A stretch of DNA of 56,960 bases from UHGV virus genome UHGV-1359774, one strand, 5' to 3'. The notes below the pieces were generated by a model. The model saw nothing but the letters and a program-made list of their open reading frames with translations, searched no databases and was not told the DNA's origin. A program made the position numbers and the translations under genes. The DNA is from a virus. Position 1 is the stretch's first letter. Every line of letters starts with the position of its first letter. Below are positions 16,511-41,313 of this stretch, one piece after another.

Positions 16511-16541
16511 CGGCGAGAAGATTAAACACTCACTTTTTTTA
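16511..16541 (-). promoter_or_regulatory. late-operon motif copy A (AAAAAAGTGAGTGTTTAATC in gene sense), ~30 nt upstream of the I-J start
   Basis: One of three copies of the same motif (see 22338 and 41283). Confidence 0.5.
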
Positions 16542-16620
16542 GGGGGATGGGGCGAAGAGGGTTGACAACGAAGTTGAGAAAGCTGGCGGGAATAGATAGG
16601 TTGGCGGCGAGGGGGGAAAA

Positions 16621-16965
16621 ATGGATATCCAGACGTTTGTCAAAGAGACCTTGGTGCAAATTGCAAACGGCGTTGCCAGTGCACGGGAAGAAGCCAAGAA
16701 AAAGGGAGTGTTGATCGGTCAGCCTTGTCTTGCCGATGAAAAAACAGGGGTAGTGTTTACAGGCATCAATATCGGCGGTGCCAGACCGCATCCATTTATG
16801 GTAAATTTTGACGTTGCGGTGTCCACCACAAAATCAGCAGACGGCGGCCTTAAAATTTTGGAAGTTCTTGGAGTAAAAGGAAACTATGAAAATGCGGCGA
16901 TCAATCGTGTCCGTTTTGAAGTCCCTGTAAGTTGGATTGATCATCAGCCGCGACAACGAGGATAA
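16621..16965 (+). CDS. hypothetical protein
   Basis: ORF at the edge of the cargo island. Confidence 0.3.
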   Translation: MDIQTFVKETLVQIANGVASAREEAKKKGVLIGQPCLADEKTGVVFTGINIGGARPHPFMVNFDVAVSTTKSADGGLKILEVLGVKGNYENAAINRVRFEVPVSWIDHQPRQRG

Positions 16966-17149
16966 TGTCAAGGTCAGCCATTTCTCCAGCACCGGGACGC
17001 CCGACATAAAGATCATCCGTCACAGAACACCGCATGCGCACTCTTTCGATTGAAGGGTGCGCATTAAGAATGCTGGCAATCGCTTCATCCAGCTTTTTGC
17101 CGCTGACCATGTCAAACTGACCTGTTTCCAAGTTTTCCTGCCTGATCAT
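16901..17149 (-). CDS. hypothetical small protein
   Basis: GAGAGG RBS; overlaps the 3' end of the previous ORF on the other strand. Confidence 0.25.
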   Translation of the reverse strand: MIRQENLETGQFDMVSGKKLDEAIASILNAHPSIERVRMRCSVTDDLYVGRPGAGEMADLDIILVVAADDQSNLQGLQNGHD

Positions 17150-17268
17150 ATTCTGCCTCTCTATATCAATGCATATTGATATCTTTATATCCTAATATCC
17201 TGATTTTATCCAGCGAAAGATGCCCGCTACGCCTTGCGACGCTATTGGATTGCTGGTAGGTCGGATGC

Positions 17269-18009
17269 ATGCACAAAATCATCCTCACACTCGTGTTATC
17301 CCTTGTCCCGGCACTGGCTCTTGCCGCTGGCAATACCACCAACGACAGCTTCAGCCAGGCCAAGCGGATGCTTGAGCGTCAGGTCTACCACGATCACCGT
17401 GTGACGCTTTACTGTGGAGCGGAGTTCAACGCTCAGAAGCGCGTGACGCTGCCTGCTGGCTTCACCACGCCCGCGCATGAAAAACGGGCCACCAAAATTG
17501 AATGGGAGCACGCGGTGCCTGCTGAGAACTTCGGCCGCGCCTTTCCAGAGTGGCGAGACGGGCACCCCGAATGCGTCAACCGCAACGGCAAACCATTCAA
17601 GGGCCGTCGCTGCGCAGAGAAGGTCAACATGGAATACCGCCACATGCAGGCGGACATGTACAACCTCTTTCCGGCCATTGGCACGGTGAACGCCGTTCGC
17701 AGCAACAAGCAGTATTCGGCTCTACCCGGCTCTGAATCCGCATTCGGTAGTTGTCCGGCCAAGGTAGATGGCAACCGCTTTGAGCCACCGGACAGGGCCA
17801 AGGGGCAAGTGGCGCGCGCCGCGCTGTACATGGCCGACAGTTACCCAAAGTACCGCTTGAGCCGCCAGCAACAGCAGCTTTTTGAGGCGTGGGATAAGAT
17901 GTTCCCGGTAGATCAATGGGAATGTACGCGGGCCAAAAGGATCGAGAAGCTACAGGGCAACGCGAATGCTAGGGTCAAGCAGCCGTGCCAGCAGGCGGGG
18001 TTGTGGTGA
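17269..18009 (+). CDS. secreted Endonuclease I (EndA/Dns/Vvn family DNA/RNA non-specific nuclease)
   Basis: Signal peptide MHKIILTLVLSLVPALALA; blocks TLYCGAEF, IEWEHAVPAENF, ADMYNLFPAIGTVNAVRSN match the family. Confidence 0.75.
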   Translation: MHKIILTLVLSLVPALALAAGNTTNDSFSQAKRMLERQVYHDHRVTLYCGAEFNAQKRVTLPAGFTTPAHEKRATKIEWEHAVPAENFGRAFPEWRDGHPECVNRNGKPFKGRRCAEKVNMEYRHMQADMYNLFPAIGTVNAVRSNKQYSALPGSESAFGSCPAKVDGNRFEPPDRAKGQVARAALYMADSYPKYRLSRQQQQLFEAWDKMFPVDQWECTRAKRIEKLQGNANARVKQPCQQAGLW

Positions 18010-18183
18010 GGTTTTAAAGGATGCTCAGCTTGACTTTGTGATCAGTCGTCCTTATTGAAAAAGAGAGGGCGGCAAGGTGCTAGAACACCCCACCGCCCGT
18101 GGGACACGTTCTCCGCGATTACTGGAATCGCAAGATTTGCGCCCCGGTAGAAGAAGCGACCTTCTACCGGGGCAACTTGCGTC

Positions 18184-18267
18184 TTAGAGGTTCATCAGAC
18201 GAACCACCAGAGCCGCAAGGATGGCTGCCGCAAGTGCGGCCAACACATCCCGGAGAAAGTGCTTCAT
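18184..18267 (-). CDS. 27-aa hydrophobic peptide (MKHFLRDVLAALAAAILAALVVRLMNL), type-I-toxin-like
   Basis: AAGGAGGA RBS 7 nt from the ATG; single predicted TM helix. Confidence 0.35.
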   Translation of the reverse strand: MKHFLRDVLAALAAAILAALVVRLMNL

Positions 18268-18421
18268 GGGTGTATCCTCCTTTCGGAGAACGCGCCCACG
18301 CGAAAGCTGTAACAGAATCGTCTCGGCCTATCAATGTACCTGCCTTCCCAGCCGCCCGTGAGGCGGCTTTTCGCTTGATTTGACGTCACGCCATGGAGTA
18401 TGGGGGAAAGAGGAGGGTTCT

Positions 18422-18811
18422 ATGCGTAAACTGATCAGTTTGCTGGTGTTGGCTATGGTCGTGGTCGTCGGGGCGGGGTGTGCAAAGCCTGTCTATAAAG
18501 ATTGGATGGCAATGGGCGGGAGCCGTAGCGATGCTACTGTAAAATTGGGGTATACTTGGAATCCTAACAATGAAAAGCCAGAGACAAGCCAGCAGCAAGC
18601 AATTGATTTGGCTAGTCAAAAATGCCAAACTTGGGGATATGAACGCGCTGAGCCGTTTGGTAGTACTTTTAGCAAGTGTACAAGCATGTCATATCAACCT
18701 TTTGCTGGGGTGGTGTGCTACCAAATGCAGGCTGAGGCTGAATTTCAATGCGTAGGGAAATTGCCTCCTGATATTGAAGACGTTTCGAATAAATTGACAA
18801 AAAAGAAATAA
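18422..18811 (+). CDS. lipoprotein (lipobox VGAGC), low GC
   Basis: AGAGGAGGG RBS; signal/lipobox MRKLISLLVLAMVVVVGAGC. Confidence 0.5.
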   Translation: MRKLISLLVLAMVVVVGAGCAKPVYKDWMAMGGSRSDATVKLGYTWNPNNEKPETSQQQAIDLASQKCQTWGYERAEPFGSTFSKCTSMSYQPFAGVVCYQMQAEAEFQCVGKLPPDIEDVSNKLTKKK

Positions 18812-18859
18812 GTAAATGTTTGGATAAGATGCTCAAGATTTAAAGCTAGATTCATAAAG

Positions 18860-18888
18860 TAAGGCCCCTCACGGGGCCTTTCTTTATA
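18860..18888. terminator. bidirectional intrinsic terminator (AGGCCCC-tcac-GGGGCCT, T-runs both sides) between convergent genes
   Basis: Direct reading. Confidence 0.5.
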
Positions 18889-20281
18889 TCACTTTTTTCC
18901 TTACACACACTACCTTTGCCGCAATGCCTAGTTTCGGCATTAGGTTAGTCCAAGTATATATCTGGCTGTCCAGAAGATGATCTTTAGTTTTTACCTCTAC
19001 TAAAAGCATTTCTTTACCATCAAATGCAAAAATATCGGGCCAGCCGATAGAATTATCTTGCGGATTTTCAAGAACCATTTCAAGAAGCTGATGAAAGCGA
19101 TCCCATCCAAGACCGTCTAACACTGCTTCTATATCTTCAAGCGTTAGCCCGCTGAACCATTTTTTCAATGAAGCGTCTGTATAAATGTCTTGCCAATTTT
19201 GTAATAGTTCTTGTTTTATAGAAAATTTGACATCTTGAATGACATCAACTTTATTAAGTCCATACATATTGATTTGCACGTTAAACGTTCTAGCCCTGTA
19301 ATTTTCTTCAAATAATGCTTTTGATTTTTCTGCAATATAATTAAGACAACCAGCTTGCATGAGCTGCATTATTGGGTGCAATTCATATGTTGTTCCTTTA
19401 TACCCTTGGTGACGCAAATGCCACATTACGGCATCTTCTGGTCTTTTTATTTTTACCGTATCGCTAAGAATATATTTCTTTTCAGTATTATTCCATTGTA
19501 TTTCTAAATATTCCAATTTTATATTATTATTTTTACACTGTTCTTCAAGAAATTTATTATTATTTGCATTTGTTTTATCTACATCTCCTTGTTTTTGTTT
19601 ATCATTTTTTGTAATCAATTTATTTTTTAATTCTGTTGCCTTAAGAATACGTTTTTCCCACTTCCATTCTTCTCCGCTACCTATCAACACACCATAACAG
19701 TTTGTTATCTTTTTAAATTCTTGATGATCTTTATTTAATTCCAGTGCTCTTTGACACGCTTCTATTTCAAGGTCATAATTTTTCAATTTACGAGCTAATA
19801 TAGCTACTCGAAGATATGGTTCTAGACTTATCCATCCGCCAGTAGCATATAAATATAATTCTGATTTATCGCATTCTATGAACCTATTATTTAGTTCTAG
19901 CCTAGTTATTTCATTATCGTCTTCGGAGACAATGTCATATTCACTAAGAGATTTACGCAATTGACCAAAATATAAGTTTTGTGGATTCGGATTTTTTGAT
20001 GGATAGAATTTAAATTCCCCATCTTCTTCTTTTAATTCTCCATATAATCCGCAAAATTCACATTCTAAGTTGAAAAAAATAGAGCCAATTATATTTGCCT
20101 GTTTTCCGCAATTTGGACATGCGGCAGTCAATCCTGCATTGCTATATAGTTGAGTTAAGTTATTTGATAAATTCAATTCACCGCTATCTGTTATTTTATT
20201 ACCATTGACACCTTCAGGCATACTGTCATTGGAAGTTGACTTTTTACCCCATCCACTAAATAACCGCTTTAAAAAATTCAT
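18884..20281 (-). CDS. zinc-ribbon / helical / C-terminal VRR-NUC (PD-(D/E)xK) nuclease protein, very low GC
   Basis: C-terminal block GWPDIFAFDGKEMLLVEVKTKDHLLDSQIYTWTNLMPKLG matches VRR-NUC; N-terminal CPNCG...CEFCG; GGGAGGGGGGG RBS before the ATG at 20281; gene is ~30 % GC against ~60 % nearby. Confidence 0.6.
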   Translation of the reverse strand: MNFLKRLFSGWGKKSTSNDSMPEGVNGNKITDSGELNLSNNLTQLYSNAGLTAACPNCGKQANIIGSIFFNLECEFCGLYGELKEEDGEFKFYPSKNPNPQNLYFGQLRKSLSEYDIVSEDDNEITRLELNNRFIECDKSELYLYATGGWISLEPYLRVAILARKLKNYDLEIEACQRALELNKDHQEFKKITNCYGVLIGSGEEWKWEKRILKATELKNKLITKNDKQKQGDVDKTNANNNKFLEEQCKNNNIKLEYLEIQWNNTEKKYILSDTVKIKRPEDAVMWHLRHQGYKGTTYELHPIMQLMQAGCLNYIAEKSKALFEENYRARTFNVQINMYGLNKVDVIQDVKFSIKQELLQNWQDIYTDASLKKWFSGLTLEDIEAVLDGLGWDRFHQLLEMVLENPQDNSIGWPDIFAFDGKEMLLVEVKTKDHLLDSQIYTWTNLMPKLGIAAKVVCVRKKVI

Positions 20282-20425
20282 CCCCCCCCTCCCCATACAA
20301 AATAATCTAAAAAGGTTTTCGATTACTCCATCTCGTAGATAAAGCTACCAGTTACCAAATATCCGCTCAACAATTTTCTTGACTCGGCGGTGATTTTGTG
20401 GCGTCAAAGGCACAGGAGGGGAATT

Positions 20426-20767
20426 ATGAAAAAAATAGTTTTCTTACTGATCGCGTTGGCAATCTTCATCATGCCTTCAGGAAATTCTTTTGCTCAAAAT
20501 TGCGACAAAGCTGAAGCTCAAAAAATTATCGATGCTCTCGTTTCTGGAGGTTTGGCAGAGCGTCAAGATACTCCAGGAAGCATTACTGTCTGGTATATTT
20601 GGAAAGCAAATTGGTATGGAATGCCAAAGGAAAAACAGTATAGCATGATTTCTGGCTTGGGCGGCGTTGAGCAATGTCTCAAACCGGGAAGAGCTGTTAG
20701 AATTCGAGTTGCCGGTAAAGACGTTGCAAGGGCCAGCTCTACGGGAAAAATCGAATTGTTAGACTAA
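20426..20767 (+). CDS. small secreted protein (signal peptide), low GC
   Basis: AGGAGGGG RBS; MKKIVFLLIALAIFIMPSGNSFA. Confidence 0.45.
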   Translation: MKKIVFLLIALAIFIMPSGNSFAQNCDKAEAQKIIDALVSGGLAERQDTPGSITVWYIWKANWYGMPKEKQYSMISGLGGVEQCLKPGRAVRIRVAGKDVARASSTGKIELLD

Positions 20768-20822
20768 GTTAATATATTTTTATGTACCATTAAGATGGAA
20801 TTTGCATCCGGTGTTCAATGAA

Positions 20823-20849
20823 AGCCCTGCCGAAGCAGGGCTTTTTCTT
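20823..20849 (+). terminator. intrinsic terminator AGCCCTGC-cgaa-GCAGGGCT-TTTTT
   Basis: Direct reading. Confidence 0.5.
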
Positions 20850-21136
20850 GACTTCAATCTTTTTTCGTGCTTCCATTTCTTCACGGTGCTTGAAAACACC
20901 CTCTGGCGGCAACGCCACCCGACAGTTTGGCGCTTTTTTGTGCCCTTTTCCCAAAGTCAAGATTTTTCTTGATGATGTTTTGGGCTAGAATTGCAACCAT
21001 TGTTGCCGGGTGTCCCCGATATGTCCAGGCCGCGAGGCTAAAGGCGGGGAGCAGCTCCAGAGGCTGTTTTCAACACCCGGCATTTTCTATTGGAGAGAAT
21101 GCCTTGTGAACCTTGAAAAGTTCCTCTGGAGGCATC

Positions 21137-22057
21137 ATGAACATCTCCCTCACCTTCAACGAAATTTCTTTCACACCCGTCACCCACCAAAACAGTCTTT
21201 GGATTCGTGCAGCAGAACTTGCCCACGCTTTGGGTTTTGCGCGCGAAGATAAGGTTACTCAAATCTATCAGCGGCATGCCGACGAGTTTACGCCGGATAT
21301 GACGCAACTTATTGAAAACGCCGTAGAACCTCAAAATGGGGTTCAGGGTAATTTAGCTCCTGGCCGCTGCCGCATCTTCTCCCTTCGCGGCTGCCACCTC
21401 CTTGCCATGTTCGCGCGCACGCCCGTAGCCAAGGCGTTTCGCAAGTGGGTGCTGGATGTGCTGGACAGGCTGGCGGCTGAAGAACGAGCCACCCTGCCGT
21501 CTTCCGGCACGCTGACGCCGGAGCAGCAGGCCCAGCTACAGGCCATCGTGGCGGCCAAGGCCGGGATGGTCCCGGCATCTCATCGTCGCAGGGCGTTTCA
21601 GGAAATCTGGGCGCGCTTCAACAACAATTTCCAGATCGCGCGCTATGCCCAGCTTCCCCCAGCCAGAATAGGCGAGGCTGTGGAATATCTGGTGAGCATG
21701 GAGGTCAAGGCGGCCAAGGCCCTGCCGCCAACCGACAAGGAATCCTTGACAGTTGCCGCGTCCACGGCCCTCGCCTTCCGCGCGGATTTTCCCGACGACA
21801 TGGGCAGTGACCGCAAGGAGGCCATGCAGCGGATCGAGCGCATTGCACGCGAGATGCACACCAGCTTTACCGTGGTGCGCAATATCGTCCGCCTTGGCTG
21901 CCATCCGGGCAGCAAGACCATGCGCATGAGTCTGGACGAGCGGGAGGCATATGAAACCCTCCACAACCTCTATACCACTGCGGACGAAAGCCTGTGCGCC
22001 GCCTACAACGCCCTTGACGCCGGGTACAAGCTGGGCCGCCTGTACGGGCGTGGGTAG
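21137..22057 (+). CDS. phage antirepressor, AntA/AntB N-terminal domain family
   Basis: GGAGG RBS; ISFTPVTHQNSLWIRAAELAHALGF resembles the AntA N-domain. Confidence 0.55.
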   Translation: MNISLTFNEISFTPVTHQNSLWIRAAELAHALGFAREDKVTQIYQRHADEFTPDMTQLIENAVEPQNGVQGNLAPGRCRIFSLRGCHLLAMFARTPVAKAFRKWVLDVLDRLAAEERATLPSSGTLTPEQQAQLQAIVAAKAGMVPASHRRRAFQEIWARFNNNFQIARYAQLPPARIGEAVEYLVSMEVKAAKALPPTDKESLTVAASTALAFRADFPDDMGSDRKEAMQRIERIAREMHTSFTVVRNIVRLGCHPGSKTMRMSLDEREAYETLHNLYTTADESLCAAYNALDAGYKLGRLYGRG

Positions 22058-22066
22058 GGGGCCGTC

Positions 22067-22285
22067 ATGGATACCCCTGCCATCAACATGTACCAGCGCA
22101 TGGCCCTGCTGGCCCTGATCGATGTGGAATCCGCGCGAGTGGCTGTGGGACAGCGCGAACGCCGGGCGGCCAGGCATCGGCTCTTTGCCCTGATCCGGGA
22201 GCGGTACGGCGAGAAGTACACCAAACTGCCGCCGAGAGTATTCAGAGAGACGGCGCACTGGCTCATTGATGGGCCGCTGAACTAA
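22067..22285 (+). CDS. hypothetical protein
   Basis: ORF coupled to the antirepressor gene. Confidence 0.3.
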   Translation: MDTPAINMYQRMALLALIDVESARVAVGQRERRAARHRLFALIRERYGEKYTKLPPRVFRETAHWLIDGPLN

Positions 22286-22291
22286 CTGAGG

Positions 22292-22328
22292 GGCCGGGCG
22301 CTTATGGCGTCCGGCCTTTTATTTTTTT
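22292..22328 (+). terminator. intrinsic terminator (GGCCGGGCGC-ttatg-GCGTCCGGCC then TTTTATTTTTTT)
   Basis: Direct reading. Confidence 0.6.
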
Positions 22329-22337
22329 CTGCCCCCC

Positions 22338-22369
22338 CCAAAAAAGTGAGTGTTTAATCTGTTTTTGCC
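22338..22369 (+). promoter_or_regulatory. late-operon motif copy B (CAAAAAAGTGAGTGTTTAATCTGTTTTTGCC), ~50 nt upstream of the tape-measure gene
   Basis: Identical over 30 nt to copy C. Confidence 0.5.
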
Positions 22370-22410
22370 GTCATGCGGGCGCTAGAGTTTTCCCAAAAAG
22401 GAGAAAGCGT

Positions 22411-25400
22411 ATGCCCGGAATCGTCGTTGGAATTGATGTCAGCGAGTTCAATAAAAAACTTTCCGCCGCCCAGCAGGCCGTGAATGGCCTGTCCAGCGTT
22501 CTGAAGGTCGTGCCGCGTGAAGCTCTGAAAACTGCCGCTGCGCTAAATGACACAGGAAAAAACTTCAAAAATACGGCTGATAATTCAGCAACATTTTCTA
22601 AAGAATTGAATGGAGCCAGTAGCGCCGCCCAAAAAGCAGCCCTGAATATCAAATCCCTTGGGGCGCGAATTTTGGCGTTAGTAGGGGCCTACAAGGCGCT
22701 AGAAGGAATCAAGGGATATTATCAAAATATCATAAATTTTAACAGCAGCATTGAATCCTCTACAATTTCTATTGCATCTGTTCTTGGCGCTACCAACAAA
22801 ATAGCCACCGCCGAAGGAAAAAGCCTTGAGGGCATTGAAAAATTCAATGCTGCTCAAAAAATTTCCGCCGAGCTTATGGAACAAATTCAGGTTTTGGCCC
22901 TTGAATCGACAGCGACGTTTGAGGGCCTCGCTGATGGTGTTTCAGGCATCATTGCTCCGGCCACAAAAGCGGGGATAGCCATTGAGAAATTGCCCAAATT
23001 CGCCGTTACCGCAGCGCAAGCCATGGCTGCGATGAAGATTCCAACGCAGCAAATGCGGACGGAGATTGAGGCTCTTTTGAGTGGCAATATCAACAAAGTA
23101 CAAGATATCCTTGCGACAAACCTTGGCATCACGGGGGAAATGGTCAAGAATTGGCAAAAACAGGGCACGCTTATCGAGGAGCTTGAAAAAAGGCTTCGTA
23201 TTTTTGCAGAAGCGGGAAAAGCGTCTGCACAAACATGGTCAGGGTTAGTCAGCAATTTGAATGATGCCTATGATTATCTTTCAGCAAAAACTGGAAAGGG
23301 CATCTTTGAGGGGATGAAACAGTCATTCCGCGAATTATTGGATATTCTTGTCAATACGAAAGGAAAACTTGGCGTTGGCGAAGACATACAAAACATTGTA
23401 AAAATGGTTACAGAACTCCAAGATGAAATAGGAAATGGACTTATATCTGTAACAAGAGATTTTATTGACGATATTAAAGAACTGAATAAGCCGGAAAATA
23501 TAGCAGACATAAAAAGAGGATTTTCAGAATTTAAAAATACCCTAACTGGTACATTTGATATTTTGAAAAGTGTTGTATCTACACTGAAAGATGCAATATC
23601 TTTTTCCCTCAAGGGATGGAGTGACGCCCCTGACATCATTAAAGAAATGGGGCTAATCGGAGCGATTGCCCTTGGGGCAAAAGGGAGAATAGCACTCCTC
23701 GCCATTGGCGCTGCTGCTGAAGGCTTGGAACGGCTACAAGCCGTAATGTACAAATTGGGGATGTCAAGCTCATCAGACGTCACTTCTCAAATGCTAAAAA
23801 CAGCGGGCTATCTTGACCAGTCAGAACTTTACGATACCGGGCCGTCTTTAGCATCAACAAGAAAACCCAAAACACAACCCCCGGCGCTTTCCAATTCACA
23901 CGGAGCCCCTGCGTTGGCGAGTTCTCATGGCACAGAGTCAAATTCGGGACGCGAAAAATACAAGACAGGAAATGATATTGGTGGTTTTGGCGGAGAAAAC
24001 AAGGGGCAGTCGAAAATTGAGAACGCCCAAGAGAAAATAAAGCGATTGCGCGAAGAAATAAACCGCCTCAACGACGATGCCAGCAAAGCGGGCAACAGCC
24101 TCGACCAGAAGCTCAGAGAAATTGAGAAACTCGGTGAGTCAGCCGGACTGTCTGCGTCTGAAGTAAGTCAACTCAAGACGGAGTATACGCAGGCATTCAA
24201 GGCGGACACCCTCAAAGAATTTGATAAGGCGTTGCTGGAAGCACAAGGCGACACACAGGCGCTGCAACAGATCAAAATTGATGAAACGATGCAGACATGG
24301 GGTGCGCAGTTTAGCCAACTCAATACGAAATTAAGTGAGCTTGGATTGGCGACAATCGATGCCACTCCGAAGCTTGAAGAGATGCGTAAGGCCCTTGAGC
24401 ATGAACAAAACACCAAAAACCTCCAAGTCACCGCCGACTTTTACAAGCAGCTTGCCGAATACTCCGGCGACTACAACCTGTCTATGGAATACCAGAACCG
24501 GCTCATTGAGATTCAGGGCCAGAACTGGATTCAAAACGGCATAGCCATGAATGATGTCATCAAGATGCAGGAGCTTATGCGACAGGAGGCGGCCCGCGAT
24601 CCGTGGTCCGGCATGCTGCGCGGGATGCGCAAATGGAGCGGAGAAGCCACCAACCTTGGCAAACAGGTGGAAACGTCCCTGACATCCGCCTTTGATAACG
24701 CTTCCGACGCCCTGGCCGACTTCGTCACCACCGGCAAGCTGAACTTCGCGGACCTGGCGAACAGTATTATTTCCGACTTGGCGCGTATCGCGGCGCGGCA
24801 GGCCATCGGCGGCATTGTGGGGGGCCTGGCGAGCGGCTTGGGCAACCTGTTCGGCGGCAGCTATACCGATACGGCTAAAAACATGGTGAACTATATCCCT
24901 GGCGTGAATTTTTCCGCCAAGGGCAACGTCTTTTCCGGCGGCAACATCTCGGATTACTCCAATTCCATCGTCTCGCGGCCCACTCTCTTCAGCTACGGCT
25001 CCCAGCTGCAGCCCTTCGCGCGCGGGGCCGGATTGATGGGCGAAGCCGGGCGGGAAGCTATCCTGCCTTTGGCGCGCACCAGCGGCGGCAATCTCGGCGT
25101 ATATGCCACCTTTGAGCAACGGCAGCTGCAACGCGACATGGACAGTCTCAAGGCGTCCATGAACACCGTAGAGGCAATCATACTGAGCCATAAGGCGCAA
25201 CGCGAGGCGGCAGCCGCGCCCGCGCCGGAAGTCAAGGTTAACATCATCAACAACAGCAACGCACAGGTCACGCAGGAAACGCGCACAGACAACTACGGCA
25301 ACAAGACCATTGACGTAATGGTCGGCGACGCGGCGGCCCGGCAACTCAATCGGCCCGGCACCACTCTGAACAAATCCTTCTACCAGCAAACCGGCCTGCA

Positions 25401-28468: not shown

Positions 28469-28471
28469 CGC

Positions 28472-29840: not shown

Positions 29841-29869
29841 GAAAAAGCCGGGCATTTAAGGTGCCCGGC
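29841..29869 (-). terminator. intrinsic terminator (GCCGGGCA-loop-TGCCCGGC then TTTTT) after the Zn-ribbon gene
   Basis: Direct reading. Confidence 0.55.
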
Positions 29870-29874
29870 CGTGG

Positions 29875-30081: not shown

Positions 30082-30245
30082 GGTGCAAGCCCCTTGGCTC
30101 GCCCCGACCGCCCTATGGATTTTTTTATCAATTTCCGATTAACTACGCAGGGCGGATACTCTGCAAGCGGCTTCCCTCCGCTTGTGGGGCCGTGGGGATG
30201 CGTTGCTGCGCATCTCCGGCGGGGGCGCGTGAAGCCCCCGCCCCT

Positions 30246-30970: not shown

Positions 30971-30972
30971 GT

Positions 30973-32118: not shown

Positions 32119-32119
32119 T

Positions 32120-32578: not shown

Positions 32579-32580
32579 GG

Positions 32581-32979: not shown

Positions 32980-33024
32980 GTCAGCTTCTTCAGCTTGGTT
33001 TTCATCCCGTCCGTGACCGTCCGC

Positions 33025-33435
33025 TCAGTCATAGCCGTCGTCATCGTCGTAATATTCCCGCTCACGGCGGCTACGACGCTCACGGCGGCGTTCACGGTCG
33101 TTTTCGTCCTCGTAGTAGCGGCGCTCACGCTCCGGGTCCACGAAGCCCTGAGTCTGCCAGTCGTCCTCGCGGTAACGGCGGCGGCCCATGTCATCGTGCT
33201 CGTCGCCGCGATAGCCCCAGTCCTCGTGATCGTCGTTGTACTCGTGGCGACGGCGGCGGAATTCGCCGTAGCGATTGCGCGGGGGCAGACGCCGGGCCTC
33301 ATAGCGGCCGCCGTCCTCCTCCATGCGCATCCGGCTCCGGCCGCCGGAACCGCGACGATAATCGTATTCGTAACGGTCATCGTCGCGCCGGTCGTCCCGT
33401 CCGCCATCACGGCGCATCATGATTCGCATGGTCAT
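33025..33435 (-). CDS. Arg/Asp/Glu-rich low-complexity protein (copy 2)
   Basis: Identical to 28472..28882. Confidence 0.5.
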   Translation of the reverse strand: MTMRIMMRRDGGRDDRRDDDRYEYDYRRGSGGRSRMRMEEDGGRYEARRLPPRNRYGEFRRRRHEYNDDHEDWGYRGDEHDDMGRRRYREDDWQTQGFVDPERERRYYEDENDRERRRERRSRREREYYDDDDGYD

Positions 33436-33446
33436 AGCATGCCTCC

Positions 33447-34259
33447 TTACGCGGTGGGCGTGGTGGTAGAGGCCGTGCGGATCGCGGCCATGTGACCAAT
33501 GATGTTCACGGTGTTGGCGTTCATTTCATTGCGCAGCTGCGAACCCAGACCAGCCACAGCCTGGGCCGTGAAGTTCTGGGCTTCCATGGACGCAATCTTG
33601 GACTTGGCGTCACAGAGCTGGGTTTGCAGGTTTTCGTAAGCGTAGCGGTCGATCAGCTGACGCGTGGCCGAACCTTCGGCCATAATGGTGCGCTGCGTGG
33701 TGCAGCAGCAATCATTGATGGCGCTGGTGACCTGATTGGTGCTCTGGCAGGACAGCAGGGCATTGTCCTTGCTGGAACTCAGGATGGCCGTGTTGACGCC
33801 GTTGAAGCCCTGACAGAGGCTGTTCTGAAGCGACTGGTCACCGGAGACGATGGTGGAATTCAGGCCCGCAAAGCCCTGAGTCAGGGTGTTGTTCACGCTG
33901 GCGGTCTGCGCGGCGGTTTCAGCGGCAAGACCGCCGAAGCCCTGGCAGGCGGCCAGATTCGCGGCGTTCTGGCCCTGCAAGACCTGCAATCCAACGCCAT
34001 TAATGCTGGTCTGGATGCCGCTCAGCGCGTCCAGCTCAGCGGTGGAAGCGGTGCCGCCGCCGGGATTCCCGGCGATAATCACCGAAGGAGCGCCGCCGCC
34101 GGAATTGCAGCAGCCGCCATTGCCGCCGTTGTTGCCAAAGCCGTTGCCCCACCAGGAGCCGAACAGCGCCCCGGCAAAGGCTCCAACAGCATCGCCCCAG
34201 CCGTTGTTGTTGCCGCCGTCATTGACCGAAAAAGTGGGGACAAACCCGTCCATGCCCAT
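33447..34259 (-). CDS. Gly/Asn/Gln-rich Cys-cluster protein (copy 2)
   Basis: Identical to 28894..29706. Confidence 0.5.
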   Translation of the reverse strand: MGMDGFVPTFSVNDGGNNNGWGDAVGAFAGALFGSWWGNGFGNNGGNGGCCNSGGGAPSVIIAGNPGGGTASTAELDALSGIQTSINGVGLQVLQGQNAANLAACQGFGGLAAETAAQTASVNNTLTQGFAGLNSTIVSGDQSLQNSLCQGFNGVNTAILSSSKDNALLSCQSTNQVTSAINDCCCTTQRTIMAEGSATRQLIDRYAYENLQTQLCDAKSKIASMEAQNFTAQAVAGLGSQLRNEMNANTVNIIGHMAAIRTASTTTPTA

Positions 34260-34427
34260 AGCAATACCTCCAAAGTTTTTCCCGGCGGGATGCCGGGCTT
34301 TGAAAAGATGATGGGCCAATGGATGGATTCTTACTAACTACGGATGGTTACGACAAAGTATGGGTGGGATATGGATAGCGTTTTTTTGAACATGAAAAAG
34401 CCGGGCATTTAAGGTGCCCGGCCGTGG

Positions 34428-34634
34428 TCATTCCAGCTTTGCTTTCCGGACTGGACGCAATCTGCCTTCCGGGCGTTCCAGCATGTACCGCGCGCCGCAT
34501 TCCTTGTTCTGGCATGTCCAGTAGGAAACGCGCGAATATTCGAGAGGATGGCCATCAAGGCCGATGGAAATCGTTCTGGTGCATTTTAAGGATTGCAGCC
34601 CGCATTTTGGGCAAAATTGTCTGCTGGTCGCCAT
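34428..34634 (-). CDS. small zinc-ribbon protein (copy 2)
   Basis: Identical to 29875..30081. Confidence 0.4.
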   Translation of the reverse strand: MATSRQFCPKCGLQSLKCTRTISIGLDGHPLEYSRVSYWTCQNKECGARYMLERPEGRLRPVRKAKLE

Positions 34635-34798
34635 GGTGCAAGCCCCTTGGCTCGCCCCGACCGCCCTATGGATTTTTTTATCAATTTCCGATTAACTACG
34701 CAGGGCGGATACTCTGCAAGCGGCTTCCCTCCGCTTGTGGGGCCGTGGGGATGCGTTGCTGCGCATCTCCGGCGGGGGCGCGTGAAGCCCCCGCCCCT

Positions 34799-35158
34799 CT
34801 ACCGCTTTTGGGCGCGTGCCCTGTTGTTCCGTTCTTCTTTTTTGTGGCGCTCCGCGTTTTTCAGGTCAACAAATTGCGCATCCAGGAGCCGCAGCCGCCA
34901 CAGCAGTTCTTCCGGCTCGGCATGACGCGCGATCTCCGCTAAAAGGGCCTCATGCCGGATTGCCAGGGTTGCGCCCGTCATGTTGTCCACCGGCGCGCCA
35001 TGCTGCCGCAGCATGTGCCATATCCGCATCGCTTCCTCGTTACGCGGACTCAGCGGCCAATGTCGGGTACAGTTGGCGCAATCTTGCTTCTCTTTGTGTA
35101 TCCAACGGCAGTCATTGCATGTGGGCCGGTCGCCAAATTGCCAACCGGCCCACTCCAT
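34799..35158 (-). CDS. chaperone T-part (copy 2)
   Basis: Identical to 30246..30605. Confidence 0.5.
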   Translation of the reverse strand: MEWAGWQFGDRPTCNDCRWIHKEKQDCANCTRHWPLSPRNEEAMRIWHMLRQHGAPVDNMTGATLAIRHEALLAEIARHAEPEELLWRLRLLDAQFVDLKNAERHKKEERNNRARAQKR

Positions 35159-35523
35159 CAGTTTTTTTCTTCTTCCAGCCGCCCTTCACGCGCGATATGC
35201 TTTAAACGGCCATACTGCCGGTCCATGAAGGCATTTTCGACGTCGCAGAGTTCGGCCACCATGTCGGGGCTGAACGGCAGCGGTTCATTGTTCAAATCCA
35301 TCAAACCGTCCCAACCCACAATCTGCGTCTGCATGACCACGGGCAGGATTCTGAGCCCGGCCAGATCGGTGTCATAGCCGCATTCGGCCATGACCTTTTT
35401 TACCACCTCTTGCTGCGCCGTGGCAGACAGGGGCTTGCAAAGAAAATACGCCTGGCCGTCCGGCGTCAGATCCATGCGAAAAACCTTTTCCTGATATTTC
35501 CTGGTCAGAACCGTGAAGGCCAT
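35158..35523 (-). CDS. tail assembly chaperone G-like (copy 2)
   Basis: Identical to 30605..30970. Confidence 0.55.
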   Translation of the reverse strand: MAFTVLTRKYQEKVFRMDLTPDGQAYFLCKPLSATAQQEVVKKVMAECGYDTDLAGLRILPVVMQTQIVGWDGLMDLNNEPLPFSPDMVAELCDVENAFMDRQYGRLKHIAREGRLEEEKN

Positions 35524-35525
35524 GT

Positions 35526-36671
35526 TTACGCTCCTTGAATGGTGATGGTGAAACTGTCTTCGCCCTGGATGCCCAAAGCCGTGCCCGTGCTGTCCAGCGT
35601 CAGAACAGCGTCGTCCTCACCGACTGTGGGAGAGGAAAGACGCACCTTGGGTGTGTTCACCGCAATACTGCCGTTGCTGTTTTCCGCCTTCAGGGTCACG
35701 TCCAGGGTCACGCCTTCCAGCGTTTGACCAAAGCGTACGGCCTCTGCTTTACGGAAGTACACGCTCATATCCATGCTGATGCTGCGCTTATTGTCCGACG
35801 CCTCGCCGGGGAACTTGTCTCCGACTTCCTCAAGGAATTGCGTGGGCAGCGACGCGGTGAAGGTGGAAGGACGGATACGGCCCTCTACACCATCAATCAG
35901 CAGTGAAACGCTGTTGTTTTCCACTTCCACGCCGATGGTATCCGCCTCCGGCAGCCAGGGGCCGATTTCCTCTCCCGCCAGCCAGTCCGTGGGCGCGGTG
36001 TCCAGAACCAGCGTATCCGTGGCCGTGTCGATGGCCGTAATCTGGTATTCTTGGCTCTCATTCTTGCTCACGTTACGGATGAAACCGCCCACGCTGAAGG
36101 CCAGGGATTGCCCCGTTTCCAGCTTGATTGTGGTAGTGTCCGGAACTTCGGCCAACTCACCGAAGCCGACCACGCCAGCCCGGCGGCCACGCCCGGAGAA
36201 GGTGAAGATAGTCAGGCCGTCGCGATCCACGGCCCATTCCAGGCTTTCCACGGTGCAACCGCTCATAAACTGCACGGTCTGGTCATTTTGCAGCCAGAGG
36301 GACGCCGTGGGGCGGCAAGTGGAAAGCCGGTACTGGCGCTTATTGGCTGTGCTGGCATCCACAATGCCGAGAGTGGCCCGGAACAGCGCGTCACCCTGCG
36401 GGGCACCGGCGGACGGCGTAAGCCGCGCCACCATGGGCAAGGACCAGTCGCCAGGCGGCATGGCGTCCCGGCTCTGGCTCACCACATCCAGGGTGGCGGC
36501 AAGTTCCGGGCTATCCGTGAATGTGGGTGTCTGCGCGATGGAACCGCGCCCGGCTGGACGGATAAACCCGGCGGGCACCGGCTTTTCAAGTATACCGGTG
36601 GCTGTTTCCAGCATGACAAAGGCGCGCTGGACATTGCTTTTTTGCACGGTCGAGCACATGGCTTGCGACAT
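35526..36671 (-). CDS. major tail (tube) protein (copy 2)
   Basis: Identical to 30973..32118. Confidence 0.55.
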   Translation of the reverse strand: MSQAMCSTVQKSNVQRAFVMLETATGILEKPVPAGFIRPAGRGSIAQTPTFTDSPELAATLDVVSQSRDAMPPGDWSLPMVARLTPSAGAPQGDALFRATLGIVDASTANKRQYRLSTCRPTASLWLQNDQTVQFMSGCTVESLEWAVDRDGLTIFTFSGRGRRAGVVGFGELAEVPDTTTIKLETGQSLAFSVGGFIRNVSKNESQEYQITAIDTATDTLVLDTAPTDWLAGEEIGPWLPEADTIGVEVENNSVSLLIDGVEGRIRPSTFTASLPTQFLEEVGDKFPGEASDNKRSISMDMSVYFRKAEAVRFGQTLEGVTLDVTLKAENSNGSIAVNTPKVRLSSPTVGEDDAVLTLDSTGTALGIQGEDSFTITIQGA

Positions 36672-36672
36672 T

Positions 36673-37131
36673 CTAGACCTCCTGTGCCCTGGGCCCTTCA
36701 AAAACGGTGTGCCAGGGGATATTGGTTTGTATCAGATACCGGCCTGTGTCCGGCGCGGTGCCGCGATCTTCGGTATAGGGTTCCCCACAATGCACGGCGC
36801 ATGATCCGGCCGAGAAAGACTTGCGGCGGAAAGCGGCCTCAAGCGCTGAACCTGTCTGGAGGCCCTGCCCTACCGCCATCTTCTTCGGTAGGCTTTGTGT
36901 GATGATCCAGACGCCCACGCGGGTGGAAAGAGCCTGTGGGCCGCCCAGTTCGTCGGAAGTGGAAAGGCCCGGCTTGAAACTGTAGAGGATATGCAGCCTC
37001 GCCTGATCCAGATTGCTGTCGCTGTTCATGGGCAAAAGCTGATATTGTCCGGAACCCGCCGGAAAAAGCGCGTCCAGCGCCTCGCTGGTCAGGGTGGAAA
37101 AGGCCCGCAGAATCAGATCAAGGCGCAGCAT
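36673..37131 (-). CDS. tail terminator-like protein (copy 2)
   Basis: Identical to 32120..32578. Confidence 0.4.
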   Translation of the reverse strand: MLRLDLILRAFSTLTSEALDALFPAGSGQYQLLPMNSDSNLDQARLHILYSFKPGLSTSDELGGPQALSTRVGVWIITQSLPKKMAVGQGLQTGSALEAAFRRKSFSAGSCAVHCGEPYTEDRGTAPDTGRYLIQTNIPWHTVFEGPRAQEV

Positions 37132-37133
37132 GG

Positions 37134-37637
37134 CTAGATTTTCCCCAGCTCTGAGTTCATCTGGTGCTTCATCTCCTGGAGAGCGAGGGCAACCATGCCC
37201 TGAGGGGCGTTCTTCGACCAGCCTGCCTCAAGCGCCTCGATATATTCCAAATTGCTGCTGATATACCACATATCCGGATTTGCCTGGAGTATTTCCGCTA
37301 CTGTCTTCTGCACAATGGTGTTTATCTCGCCTTTGTAGTTTCCCGGCGGCGGCACATAGTCACTGGGCGCACTGGTGGAAAACTGCCACGAGCGCTTGGC
37401 TCTGCCCGTCTCCACCGGAGTGCGCTCCACGATTTTTTTGTAAGTCATAATCACAATGCCCCTGACGGCTCCCAACGCCTCACCTTGGATTTTAAGCCGC
37501 ACCAGTTCGTTGAGCGTGCGCTGGAAGTCGTCCACGTCCTTGCAGCGTTTGTTGTTGAGCTCCTTGATACGCGCGGCAAAGGCTTTTCTGGTGCGGTCTA
37601 TACCGTCAAGCTCTTTGGCAAGTGCGTCAGCCATCAC
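37134..37637 (-). CDS. HK97 gp10-family tail-component protein (full length)
   Basis: Block RTPVETGRAKRSWQF ... NLEYIEALEAG matches the gp10 family. Confidence 0.5.
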   Translation of the reverse strand: MMADALAKELDGIDRTRKAFAARIKELNNKRCKDVDDFQRTLNELVRLKIQGEALGAVRGIVIMTYKKIVERTPVETGRAKRSWQFSTSAPSDYVPPPGNYKGEINTIVQKTVAEILQANPDMWYISSNLEYIEALEAGWSKNAPQGMVALALQEMKHQMNSELGKI

Positions 37638-38478: not shown

Positions 38479-38480
38479 GC

Positions 38481-39110: not shown

Positions 39111-39356
39111 TCAGGCATCCGCCTGTTTGGCGCGCAACGCCTGCAGCTGCTGCTTCAGCATCCTGTTTTCGTTGCGCAACACTTCCAGTTCATTCACGCT
39201 GTGCTCACGCCGAAGCCAGGAGGCAATGCGCAGATTTCGTTGGATTTCCGTTTCCTGCGCGGGCGCGTTCTCCTGCACGCCGGGCGTGGGGCTCTGCCCT
39301 TCGCCAGGGCCCTGTGGCTGCTGTGCGTCGTCCATGGTGCTTTTTTCTTTAGCCAT
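39111..39356 (-). CDS. hypothetical small coiled-coil protein
   Basis: GGAGG RBS. Confidence 0.35.
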   Translation of the reverse strand: MAKEKSTMDDAQQPQGPGEGQSPTPGVQENAPAQETEIQRNLRIASWLRREHSVNELEVLRNENRMLKQQLQALRAKQADA

Positions 39357-39365
39357 ATCCGCCTC

Positions 39366-40385
39366 CTAGCCCTGGGTAATCAGCACGGCTAGGGGAATAC
39401 GCTTGCGCTCAAACGCCCGCTCCCAGTTGGCCGCCGCCTGCAACTCGGCGATGGTCGGCGTATGGTCCAAGCCGAACTTGAAGCCCTGCGGGTGAATGAT
39501 CCATTCCACGCGGCTGTAGAGCAGTTCCTCGCCGCCACCGTTACCGGAAGCGGGTTTGCGCTCATACTCCATCGGCACCTTGGGTGAACCCATGCCCAGC
39601 GCGATAGCGCCGGGGCCGAATAGGTAGGAATAGTATTTGGCCGGGGCCGGGGTGTCGCCCGTGACAGGGGGAACCACGGTCATAGCGTCATCCACGATAA
39701 TGCCCGCGCCCATGTACGTGCCGAAGCCGATGTCAGCCTGCGCGTTGGGGATGGTATCAATCAGGTTTTGGCGCTGCATGGTCTGGTAGACGGTGGAATG
39801 CACAGCGATATTACCGAGCTGCGAGGAGCGGTCGCCCATGCTGCCCTTAGCGGTTATGTAGGCATCCGCGTTGAAAAGCGCAGCAGTGCCGCTTTCACCG
39901 CTGACATCCACCACCATGTCCTTGGGGCCGCCGGAAGCCTGATCAGCCGCAGCCACGCCATACAGCGAGGCCAGGACGCGCCGCGTCAGCACCGTGTTCC
40001 AGTAATCGCCGATCTGGGTAGCGATAGCGCCCATGGGATCGCTGCCGTAAAGGTCGGCGGTCAGGTCCATGACAGACCAGGACTGGTTCAGGCTCTGGCG
40101 CACGGCCAGATTGCTGATGCCCGTGATTTTCTTCGGCACGGACAGCACGGCCGGATCATCGGAACTGATGTTCGGATCATCGTCCCGAAGCGGGGCCAGC
40201 ATACGCGGTTCAATGGTTTTGCCGCCGTTCTCGCTGTTCAGGAAACTCGTCAGCATGGGGTCTTCCCGCGCCACACCGGAGCGCACAAAGGCGTTGGTGT
40301 TCAGAGTGCGCAGGATGATGTTGCCGACAATGATTTTCGAGGCAACAATGAGGTCTTTGACTTGGGTGGTATTGGCATCAGCCAT
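39366..40385 (-). CDS. major capsid protein
   Basis: 339 aa; AAGGAAAG RBS; follows the scaffold gene; lambda-E-like size and composition. Confidence 0.65.
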   Translation of the reverse strand: MADANTTQVKDLIVASKIIVGNIILRTLNTNAFVRSGVAREDPMLTSFLNSENGGKTIEPRMLAPLRDDDPNISSDDPAVLSVPKKITGISNLAVRQSLNQSWSVMDLTADLYGSDPMGAIATQIGDYWNTVLTRRVLASLYGVAAADQASGGPKDMVVDVSGESGTAALFNADAYITAKGSMGDRSSQLGNIAVHSTVYQTMQRQNLIDTIPNAQADIGFGTYMGAGIIVDDAMTVVPPVTGDTPAPAKYYSYLFGPGAIALGMGSPKVPMEYERKPASGNGGGEELLYSRVEWIIHPQGFKFGLDHTPTIAELQAAANWERAFERKRIPLAVLITQG

Positions 40386-40397
40386 GAGAGCTTTCCT

Positions 40398-41195
40398 TTA
40401 CCCGCGCAGGGGCGCGCCCGCCTGTTTCGCCAAGGCCTCGGCCTGTGCGGGATTTTCTTTGTAGATTCTGCATTGTTCAGTCACGTTAAAATGTTCCTTG
40501 CTCCACGGATTCTGGGCGGCATTGAACCCGCTGCCGCCAGGCCGCGCGCCGGAACCGCCCGGAGCCTGCTTCAGCAGATTGTCCCGGAACGGGCTGTCCA
40601 TGACCATGCGCTTGATGGCTTCATCGAAGGCGGCGATATTCCCGTTTTCGCCGTACATGTCGCTGCCGTCCGGGTTTTTGGCGACTAGTGCGCCGTCGCG
40701 CAGGGCGAACCGCCCGGCAAAAAGTTCTTTCGCCATGGCCGGATTGACCAGCTTTTCATTGACATAGGGCGATCGCAGGAAATTTCCGCCGATGACTTCC
40801 ATAGCCAGCTGCGTGGCGGTCTTCTCATAGTCGGCCTTGAGCTTGTCGCGTTCGGCAATGACCGGGCCGGTGGCCGCCTTTACGGCCTCATCAATCCGGC
40901 GGCGCACGACATCCTCGTTTTCGCGGTCCTTATCCTTCAGGGATGCAACTGTTTCGGCATCAAGCTTGGCCTGGCGCGCAAAGGCCGCCACGTCTTCGAC
41001 ACCTTCCAGCGAGGCGAAACGGGCGGAGATTGCTTCGAGTTCTTCCTTGCGCTTGGCCGCCTTGGCCGTGAGTTCGGCAATCTGCCTGCCTCGCGCTTCC
41101 GGGTCGTAACCGCCTTCTTTGCCGTCAGCGCCGATCCAGACAGGGTTTTCGCCGTCCATGACCAGAGAGCCGTTTTCATCTCTTTTCCAGGGCAT
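40398..41195 (-). CDS. capsid scaffolding protein
   Basis: AAGGAGAAG RBS before MPWKRDENG; helical charged middle region; sits between the MuF and capsid genes. Confidence 0.5.
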   Translation of the reverse strand: MPWKRDENGSLVMDGENPVWIGADGKEGGYDPEARGRQIAELTAKAAKRKEELEAISARFASLEGVEDVAAFARQAKLDAETVASLKDKDRENEDVVRRRIDEAVKAATGPVIAERDKLKADYEKTATQLAMEVIGGNFLRSPYVNEKLVNPAMAKELFAGRFALRDGALVAKNPDGSDMYGENGNIAAFDEAIKRMVMDSPFRDNLLKQAPGGSGARPGGSGFNAAQNPWSKEHFNVTEQCRIYKENPAQAEALAKQAGAPLRG

Positions 41196-41282
41196 CTGCT
41201 TCTCCTTGCGCCAACCGGCGCGCATTCTGTTGTGCGGCGCGGAACTCCGCGCCTTTTTCAGCAAGTATGCCCGTCATTGCAT

Positions 41283-41313
41283 GGCAAAAACAGATTAAAC
41301 ACTCACTTTTTTG
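41283..41313 (-). promoter_or_regulatory. late-operon motif copy C (CAAAAAAGTGAGTGTTTAATCTGTTTTTGCC in gene sense) upstream of the scaffold/capsid genes
   Basis: 30/30 identical to copy B. Confidence 0.5.

Follow-up and report, generated by a model that had tools for sequence, protein, structure and literature searches.

A 20-nt box repeated before three virion operons as a candidate activator site of late promoters in a lambdoid-like phage genome

In phage lambda there is a single late transcript, governed by Q antitermination from one promoter, PR′, and there are no internal promoters. The late promoters of Mu (Plys, PI, PP and Pmom) have a −10 element and no −35, and their activator site is centred near −43, overlapping the −35 region; one of them lies directly before the protease/scaffold gene and after a MuF-type gene, and the Mu proteins Mor and C are helix-turn-helix (HTH) proteins that bind dyad sites. 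P2, 186 and P4 have four late promoters with a TGT-N12-ACA dyad, served by the Ogr/B/Delta zinc fingers of the pattern CX2CX22CX4C (PMC3931495; PMC5694545). In Gram-positive siphoviruses, late activators of the RinA/ArpU/LtrC type come from a small gene next to terS that controls packaging and virion genes (PMC3152322). Here, we compare with these systems a 20-nt box, AAAAAAGTGAGTGTTTAATC, that recurs upstream of three virion operons in the virus genome UHGV-1359774, the whole 56,960-nt stretch of which is called the window below. The comparison suggests a familiar type of late control in a new sequence and a new phage group, with the box most likely serving as the docking site of a phage-made activator. 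We put the probability of our full explanation, a promoter module read by a phage activator that is most likely a 76-aa zinc-finger protein (Znf76), at about 0.6.

The 20-mer has exactly three matches in the window (copies A, B and C; Table 1), even with three mismatches allowed, and 0 of 100 dinucleotide-preserving shuffles of the window gave any match to it. A 13-nt core searched at up to three mismatches gave 10 matches in the window against 8 expected, that is, no extra copies above chance. Every copy is oriented toward its downstream operon, A toward the J-like tail protein, B toward the tape measure and C toward scaffold and capsid, which bears out the original prediction that the motif occurs three times and always reads with the gene that follows it; PHROGs confirms the genes named there. 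The stretch that it saw shared between B and C is also real, and its length is 31 identical bases rather than 30 (CAAAAAAGTGAGTGTTTAATCTGTTTTTGCC, 22339-22369 versus 41283-41313). In IMG/VR the box was found only in one related phage, IMGVR_UViG_3300045988_174130 (L001; relatives and related contigs carry L numbers below), whose copy we call B′. Across these four paralogous copies (A, B, C and B′) the 20-mer is 100% identical, while identity in their flanks, measured for 40 nt upstream, for the 23-nt spacer and for 25 nt downstream, is only 17–57%. The box has no dyad symmetry and is thus an asymmetric site.

All copies have, exactly 23 nt past the end of the box, a hexamer whose second base is A and whose sixth is T: TATACT at A, TAGAGT at B, CATACT at C, CATGCT at B′ (L001 and L040) and TATGCT in the copy A variant of L094. 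The spacer sequences between box and hexamer differ among copies, and that of L001 B′ is unrelated, with CATGCT still at 23 nt and followed by GGTCCCAAA; the metagenome variants of copy A have TATGCT (L094) or TATACT (L079) at the same spacing. In A, B and C, CCCAAA or GAAAAA comes within 3–5 nt after the hexamer, and (C)CCAAA follows it in B′ and in the L094 variant. An A at −11 is near-invariant in sigma-70 promoters, and these hexamers combine the A2 and T6 of a sigma-70-type −10 with a fixed place before the gene; the start site ~7 nt downstream is a prediction. At the −35 position, 16–18 nt upstream of the −10, stand TTCTCG, TGTTTT and TTTATC, with 1–3 of 6 matches to TTGACA, and a simple sigma-70 consensus scan found no −35/−10 pair at the box sites, in agreement with the earlier statement that they have no good −35.

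The TTTAAT within the box, which the original prediction had taken for the −10 with a transcription start site (TSS) ~10 nt downstream, was rejected as a −10 or extended −10, as it would place T at −11 and has no TG at −15/−14. With T at −11 in TTTAAT and TAnnnT found 23 nt downstream of every box, the TSS is instead predicted ~36–40 nt past the box, which would put the box at about −55 to −36 as an upstream element. By this geometry the box is not itself the −10 element, and it sits where a class II-type activator would bind. Sigma-54 (GG-N10-GC), ECF-like and CRP/FNR-like dyad readings were rejected on inspection of the site sequences.

Copies B and C lie 8–11 nt past strong intrinsic terminators, so the genes downstream of them need re-initiation. 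The terminator before copy C has its hairpin at 41332-41359, with CTGTCAAG in the loop region, and its T-run at 41324-41330; the terminator loop upstream of L001 B′ contains CTGTCAAG as well. Copy A is located in a divergent intergenic region. The tape-measure/minor-tail block (22.4-28.3 kb) is encoded on the other strand, converging with the head and tail genes, and since this orientation is common to relatives it is not an assembly error. Between that block and copy A with its J operon lies a cargo island (16.6-22.3 kb; 16621-22285) that holds Endonuclease I, a YecR-like lipoprotein, a Bro-N protein and a 470-aa open reading frame (ORF) of 40% GC, which has a weak VRR-NUC match and no PADLOC match. 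With an inverted block and terminator-ended cargo islands inside the virion cluster, separate restart promoters are needed. We regard it as very probable that the box is part of a promoter, and as probable that it is an activator site. The general idea of an activator-dependent late promoter before each of three late operons, put forward in the original prediction, is sustained by position, orientation, the fixed 23-nt spacing, the terminators and the same layout in relatives; the −10 and TSS placed there are not.

The predicted promoter geometry is the same as in Mu, and copy C stands at the same genomic junction as the Mu promoter before protease/scaffold. It differs in that a Pfam scan of the window ORFs (~70, among them part of the very short ones) gave no member of the Mor/C family; the scanned ORFs also held no sigma factor and no Q or RinA/ArpU-type protein. 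Nor is the phage transposable, with its integrase, its RusA and its O-like/DnaB replication genes.

A scan for the 19-mer in 185,579 species, each represented by one genome (596 Gb in all), found it four times, singly and in unrelated taxa, where ~4 hits are expected by chance. The box is therefore not a mobile repeat spread through host genomes, the possibility that the original prediction had itself raised, with the proviso that the true host genome may lie outside this collection. A 16-mer scan of metagenomes gave at least 120 matches, mostly in unrelated DNA, and five loci among the matches listed are relatives. The close relatives fetched via the scaffold protein (L014-L019) all have copy C, with the whole intergenic region identical. 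Sequence on both sides of the box differs between the window and L001, and B and C have the same orientation in all relatives. A look-up of portal P0118 led to a chimeric prophage remnant, which was of no help.

As we read their sequences, related lineages have the same layout at the same junctions, each with a box of its own. In the L023/L158 lineage, whose portal is 65–68% identical, this is a 35-nt element, TTCGTACCAACAT-N3-GTTG-TTTTTC-CTCCAG, with the dyad CAACA-N3-TGTTG, which stands ahead of the endolysin gene and of the scaffold gene, each time 7 nt from the TAGTAT or TATTCT hexamer that follows. Directly upstream of its lysis promoter, this lineage also encodes a 179–181-aa protein with a DUF4096-like N-terminus and a C-terminal zinc ribbon (CPxC...RYxxCxxCGHTS). 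Lineages of the Desulfovibrio fairfieldensis type (L008-L013, L151-L153, L159) have an ~85-nt module before their lysis, scaffold and tape-measure operons, (T/C)GTCAA ... TTTTGCC ... GTGC-TA(C/T/G)G(C/G/T)T ... CCAAA, in which (T/C)GTCAA starts exactly 71 nt before the −10 in 9 of the 9 copies examined, at seven sites. Copy A of the window retains TGTCAACCCTC at the same 71-nt distance. The distal TGTCAA box might be a distal factor site or a bend; a reading of it as the −35 (TTGACA) of a divergent promoter fits L154 but neither the window nor the D. fairfieldensis-type copies.

In relatives, the junctions between MuF and scaffold and between chaperone and tape measure hold minus-strand cargo islands, which contain BrnTA, HicAB and HigBA toxin-antitoxin pairs and the same Endonuclease I/YecR pair as the window. 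In D. fairfieldensis-type prophages this pair (79–89% nucleotide identity) is at the MuF-scaffold junction (L009 7919-9144; L013 8548-9768), so the cargo appears to move between late-operon junctions. L152 has AAA_15/AAA_21 ATPase and RNA-ligase genes inserted before endolysin. That variable cargo islands abut the copies, and that box flanks differ between the window and L001, would also fit a recombination or module-boundary sequence, a recombinase site or homology patch used for inversion or cassette exchange, as would the arrangement of the copies as inverted repeats flanking 5.8-kb and 18.9-kb segments and the inversion of the tape-measure block relative to the other virion genes. We hold this to be extremely improbable: the sole recombinase seen is the tyrosine integrase next to attP, the constant orientation of B and C in all relatives gives no sign of flipping, an inversion between copies would not give back the collinear order, and the fixed −10/TSS spacing and the equivalent elements elsewhere are explained by promoter function instead.

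A putative fourth late promoter, P_lys, lies upstream of the endolysin gene and has no box; the earlier reading had missed it, together with a second, Ogr-like zinc-finger ORF (34428-34634) taken up below. Its sequence GCTATGCTTTCTCCCAAATG (the −10 TATGCT plus TTCTCCCAAATG) matches the copy A core, GCTATACTTGCTCCCAAATG, at 18 of 20 positions, and in place of the box two 10-nt direct repeats, CCTGATTTTA and CCTGATATTC (47906-47925), stand at −59 to −40, overlapping the stop codon of a 72-aa HTH gene. The phage seems to have two late-promoter classes with a common core, and the different upstream site on the same core suggests differential regulation. Homologues of the 72-aa HTH protein precede P_lys in L023 and in the D. 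fairfieldensis-type lineages. In L007, the 72-aa HTH gene and the lysis cassette are replaced by a 75-aa zinc-finger ORF and other lysis genes while the boxes are unchanged, which links the HTH protein to P_lys and not to the box; it was rejected as the box factor and likely regulates P_lys rather than the box promoters. The likeness to lambda lies in the gene order (cI/cro, replication, a nin-like region with RusA, a small regulator, lysis, terminase, head and tail) and in the place of P_lys just before the lysis cassette. Unlike lambda, the phage has virion genes broken up by terminators and restart promoters and one inverted block, and the scanned ORFs gave no Q family match.

These observations bear on whether an activator has to be invoked. 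In Escherichia coli, the region spanned by the box, −55 to −36, is the UP-element position, and the sites could be activator-independent promoters in which A6 and TTTAAT form a UP-like element for the alpha C-terminal domains that offsets the weak −35, with timing set by repressor loss, copy number or read-through. The box indeed begins with A6, ends with TTTAAT and is AT-rich in a genome of ~58% GC, and no bona fide activator family was recognised among the scanned ORFs. UP function, however, would not need 20/20 identity, including the G-rich centre GTGAGTG, in four identical copies whose flanks have diverged, and sister lineages have GC-rich elements that are not UP-like at the same place. 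Together with P_lys, where the core is the same and the upstream site is different, this leaves an activator-free promoter improbable.

The terminators directly upstream of B and C, the orientation of the sites with transcription and the small HTH gene in the Q position would also suit an elongation regulator, with the box as a Q/AlpA-like antiterminator element, or a stoperator-like repressor site. The elements bound by Q and AlpA are situated next to the −35 and −10 or between them, and their action requires a −10-like pause element early in the transcript (PMC9371919). Here, the box is upstream of the −35, inspection by eye of the first ~20 predicted transcribed bases showed no −10-like element, no Q family match was found among the ORFs scanned, and L007 retains the boxes with the HTH gene of the Q position replaced. 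We dropped the idea of the 72-aa HTH protein as itself AlpA/Q-like, since AlpA is about twice as long (residues to 142) and has its site between −35 and −10 (PMC9371919). For a stoperator, three sites are too few, and none is inside an operon. We rate either kind of site as very unlikely.

Znf76, encoded between holin and terS, is the best candidate for the activator, with chances that we judge a little short of even. In L007 its gene forms a 270-bp island of 94% identity between replaced modules (the lysis cassette; terS/terL), and the box promoters are kept. The L025/L026 lineage has a Znf76 homologue at the same position (40% identity over 53 aa, pairwise E 3e-10), and its scaffold promoter, GGTGTTTATTA, has GTGTTTA starting exactly 33 nt before the hexamer TATCAT, the register of GTGTTTAATC plus 23 nt in the window; GTGTTTA occurs only twice in the 17-kb contig of this lineage. 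Genomes of the D. fairfieldensis type have a Cys-free ORF of 51–54 aa at the Znf76 position and no such box, and lineages in which no Znf76 homologue was seen have unrelated sequence at the GTGTTTA position. A small candidate activator gene adjoining terS recalls the RinA/ArpU/LtrC type, which differs in its protein families and in having a single promoter upstream of terS; in the window terS has no box, and the boxes are downstream, at three operon starts.

P2, 186 and P4 are, with Mu, the closest functional analogues. In them, each of several separate late operons starts from a promoter whose −10 is usable, which has no real −35 and which is preceded by a conserved site, and the activator is a small (~70–80 aa) C4 zinc-finger protein like the candidates here, one that acts by contacting the alpha subunit of RNA polymerase. 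The cysteine spacing is similar and not identical: against CX2CX22CX4C in Ogr (PMC3931495), Znf76 has CX2CX19CX4C (C38-X2-C41-X19-C61-X4-C66, alternatively X21 then CX2C), its L025 homologue CX2CX21CX4C and the 68-aa ORF CX2CX29CX4C. Znf76 had no Pfam Ogr_Delta match at E<=1, and the L025 homologue scored 19.5 bits, below the gathering cut-off of 26.3 bits for PF04606. The box is asymmetric, and the 114-nt regions of A, B, C, B′ and P_lys hold no TGT-N12-ACA, the dyad that P2-type late promoters have upstream of the −35 region; the phage, moreover, is a lambdoid siphovirus and not a P2-like myovirus. Membership of the Ogr/Delta family thus fails on both the Pfam threshold and the dyad site, and Znf76 is not a demonstrable member. 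In the original prediction the zinc-finger gene was a candidate activator with Ogr/Delta-like spacing: its candidacy is strengthened by the L007 island and by the L025 homologue with its GTGTTTA register, while the family label falls with the Pfam score and the missing dyad.

The same promoter model would hold if the box were bound by the 68-aa Ogr-like protein or by a host transcription factor in place of Znf76. The 68-aa ORF gave weak Ogr_Delta signals, namely 16.7 bits to the Pfam family, a local match to P2 Ogr (YHQCQNVNCSATFI/YWTCQNKECGARYM, E 0.003) and a Zymomonas 'Ogr/Delta-type' match at E 10; it lies after the tail genes with its own terminator, much as ogr of P2 follows the tail operon, with a promoter of its own and a terminator that it shares, and although absent from the relatives' gene lists as called it is kept in all box-bearing genomes seen. 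All of these scores are below significance, the Pfam score being under the 26.3-bit cut-off, and a Foldseek search of its AlphaFold2 model (pLDDT 70) against BFVD returned nothing below E 0.1. There is no TGT-N12-ACA site for an Ogr-like protein, the ORF is inside a conserved virion block, so that its retention carries no independent information, and the L025 contig ends too early for it to be judged there. We consider this rival improbable; as to the identity of the factor, the 68-aa protein is rather doubtful, and the probability left over by it and Znf76 goes to a host factor or to no activator.

Several points weigh against an activator box read by Znf76. What we observe directly is the sequence anatomy and its conservation, and promoter activity, start sites, activator dependence and activator identity are all inferred from these. 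The co-variation of zinc finger and box rests on very few lineages, and the 68-aa ORF has the same presence/absence pattern as Znf76 wherever this can be judged. Znf76 has no DNA-binding annotation, its AlphaFold2 model (pLDDT 52) is unusable, and it is an orphan: a word-index and exhaustive HMMER search of 1.84 billion representatives returned its own cluster plus Cys-rich repeat proteins, and tblastn against phages gave nothing below E 0.3. The box lacks dyad symmetry, contrary to most activator sites, and its A-tract and TTTAAT could act in the UP-like manner described above with no activator at all. Finally, the close relatives are too similar for real phylogenetic footprinting, their copy C intergenic region being identical, and as the box itself served to retrieve the metagenome variants, its intact state in them is ascertainment and no evidence.

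Under the explanation that we favour, the 20-nt box would be the upstream, factor-binding half of a late promoter module that restarts virion-gene transcription at three points. The proposed module begins at its 5′ end with a terminator or the distal TGTCAA. A6-GTGAGTGTTTAATC then covers about −55 to −36, and a spacer of 23 nt, variable in sequence and with no more than a vestigial −35, leads to the TAnnnT −10 and to a start at (C)CCAAA. Host sigma-70 RNA polymerase would use the −10 and need help at the −35 region, which a phage-encoded, sequence-specific activator on the box would give in a class II-like geometry. The activator, most likely Znf76, would be made from the preceding P_lys lysis/packaging operon, giving a cascade from the early genes to P_lys (lysis, Znf76, terminase, portal, MuF) and on to the box promoters (head, tape-measure block, J/fibres). 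Punctuation by terminator plus promoter would make the inverted tail block and the cargo islands tolerable.

A broader joint reading, which we offer tentatively as possible rather than probable, is that a Desulfovibrionaceae-associated siphovirus clade uses a modular late-promoter cassette in which distal TGTCAA is followed by a central box specific to each lineage, then by a weak −35, the TAnnnT −10 and a start at CCAAA. The central box would be read by fast-evolving orphan zinc-ribbon activators remotely related to Ogr/Delta, here the 76-aa protein on an asymmetric 20-nt site, and the insulated restart points would let cargo islands (toxin-antitoxin, nucleases, candidate defence genes) and the tail-block inversion persist. 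It is in the modular architecture across the clade and in the orphan zinc-ribbon regulators that the main interest of the element lies. A full-text literature search on late promoters of Desulfovibrio prophages found nothing; if confirmed, these would be the first defined late-transcription signals, with a candidate regulator, for temperate phages of gut sulfate/sulfite reducers of the Desulfovibrio/Bilophila type in the literature searched. Late control by a zinc-finger activator at several promoters, known from P2-like myoviruses, would then also hold for lambdoid siphoviruses, here through an asymmetric site, and the tolerance of the virion clusters for inserted cargo islands and for a block in reverse orientation would be explained. 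For annotation, start sites can be predicted from the box and its fixed geometry, which might also provide inducible promoter parts for hard-to-engineer anaerobes.

Table 1. Coordinates of the box copies, predicted promoter elements, candidate regulators and neighbouring features, in window positions unless an L number is given
Feature	Position	Strand	Remark
Box copy A (AAAAAAAGTGAGTGTTTAATC, including a seventh A at 16540)	16520..16540 (20-mer 16520-16539)	-	Predicted −56 to −36 of the J-operon promoter
Box copy B	22340..22359	+	Upstream of tape measure
Box copy C	41293..41312	-	Upstream of scaffold/capsid
Copy A −10-like hexamer TATACT	16491..16496	-	Predicted TSS ~16483-16484
Copy B −10-like hexamer TAGAGT	22383..22388	+	Predicted TSS ~22395; then Shine-Dalgarno GGAG and tape-measure ATG 22411
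Copy C −10-like hexamer CATACT	41264..41269	-	Predicted TSS ~41257-41258
Distal TGTCAA box	16562..16567	-	Starts exactly 71 nt before the −10 of copy A
Intrinsic terminator (hairpin + T-run) directly upstream of copy B	22287..22331	+	dG −27.5 kcal/mol, z −5.3
Intrinsic terminator after MuF-like gene, upstream of copy C	41324..41359	-	dG −19.8 kcal/mol, z −4.3
P_lys, putative fourth late promoter, without box	47873..47925	-	Upstream of endolysin; −10 TATGCT 47873-47878
72-aa HTH protein, 'Q position'	47921..48139	-	Ends inside P_lys repeats
Znf76, zinc-finger ORF between holin and terS	46127..46357	-	Best candidate activator
68-aa Ogr-like zinc-finger ORF (CPKC...YWTCQNKECGARY), own terminator	34428..34634; identical duplicate 29875-30081	-	Second candidate
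Scaffold leader, ~60 nt, two GC-rich hairpins	41196-41262	-	Second hairpin abuts Shine-Dalgarno
J-like central tail fibre gene	12360-16529 as called; 12360..16481 from first in-frame ATG	-	PHROGs phrog_31, E 1.5e-90
Tape measure gene, first of inverted tail block 22.4-28.3 kb	22411-25422	+	PHROGs
Scaffold gene (DUF6651)	40398-41264 as called; 40398..41195 for the 265-aa form	-	PHROGs
Major head protein	39366-40385	-	PHROGs
Integrase (tyrosine, next to attP)	9076-10221		
CAACA-N3-TGTTG elements, L023/L158 lineage	L023 4680-4714, 14298-14332; L158 ~1440-1475		
(T/C)GTCAA boxes, D. fairfieldensis-type lineages	L008 9854, 16956; L013 9854, 16954; L151 4102; L152 4101; L159 ~3970, ~17635		

The leaders of two of the box operons have features of their own. 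The first in-frame ATG of the J-like gene, at 16481, is 10 nt after the predicted −10 and has no Shine-Dalgarno; an ATG so near the predicted −10 means that the J mRNA may be leaderless or near-leaderless. The sequence at this start, CCCAAATG, is likewise conserved in L079 and L094. The hairpins of the scaffold 5′ untranslated region (5′UTR) start ~10 nt after the proposed −10 in several lineages, and the homologous 5′UTRs of distant relatives (L008, L020, L021, L025) again have hairpins, of other sequence, suggesting control of translation or of stability; RNAalifold of the scaffold 5′UTR gave one 4-bp helix only, with 2 compensatory pairs.

The window as a whole looks like the genome of a complete, circularly permuted, lambdoid temperate siphovirus. 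Recognisable genes include S24 repressor-like, cro-like and CII-like genes, an O-like initiator, DnaB and RusA, and the minus strand has the 72-aa HTH gene, endolysin, spanin, holin, the 76-aa zinc-finger ORF, terS, terL, portal and a MuF-like gene. Copy C follows MuF, and beyond it the head and tail genes extend down to ~28.4 kb. The two window ends (10-477 and 56582-56960) each hold part of one pentapeptide-repeat gene, with 15-nt repeats of the A(D/N)LxG type, suggesting a circular or circularly permuted contig broken inside the repeat. Scaffold and portal have homologues of ~50–55% identity from D. fairfieldensis and Bilophila wadsworthia, which makes a host from the Desulfovibrionaceae probable. 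No GenBank phage matched the stretch 36-46.5 kb by megablast, and Rfam found nothing in the window at gathering thresholds.

The window also contains an exact tandem duplication of 4,553 bp (28427-32979 = 32980-37532, no mismatches) that carries the tail-terminator-like, tube, chaperone-like, 68-aa zinc-finger and 290-aa genes. The relatives L014 and L016 are single-copy, so the duplication is either an assembly artefact or very recent. The early leftward operon (4099-4881 (+), 5265-6194 (+)) encodes, in one or the other of these two regions, a PAPS-reductase-domain protein that matches BrxP and DndC models, and also a DUF5131 protein that matches the PADLOC candidates PDC-M41B and PDC-M30B; these proteins may have DNA-modification or anti-defence functions. 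Two close relatives have an insertion of ~955 bp in the MuF-like gene (L060 3628-4584, L107 4069-5025), at window position ~41721-41725, and the L023 MuF homologue (692 aa) has an intein match, which points to a mobile intein or homing element in this head-morphogenesis gene.

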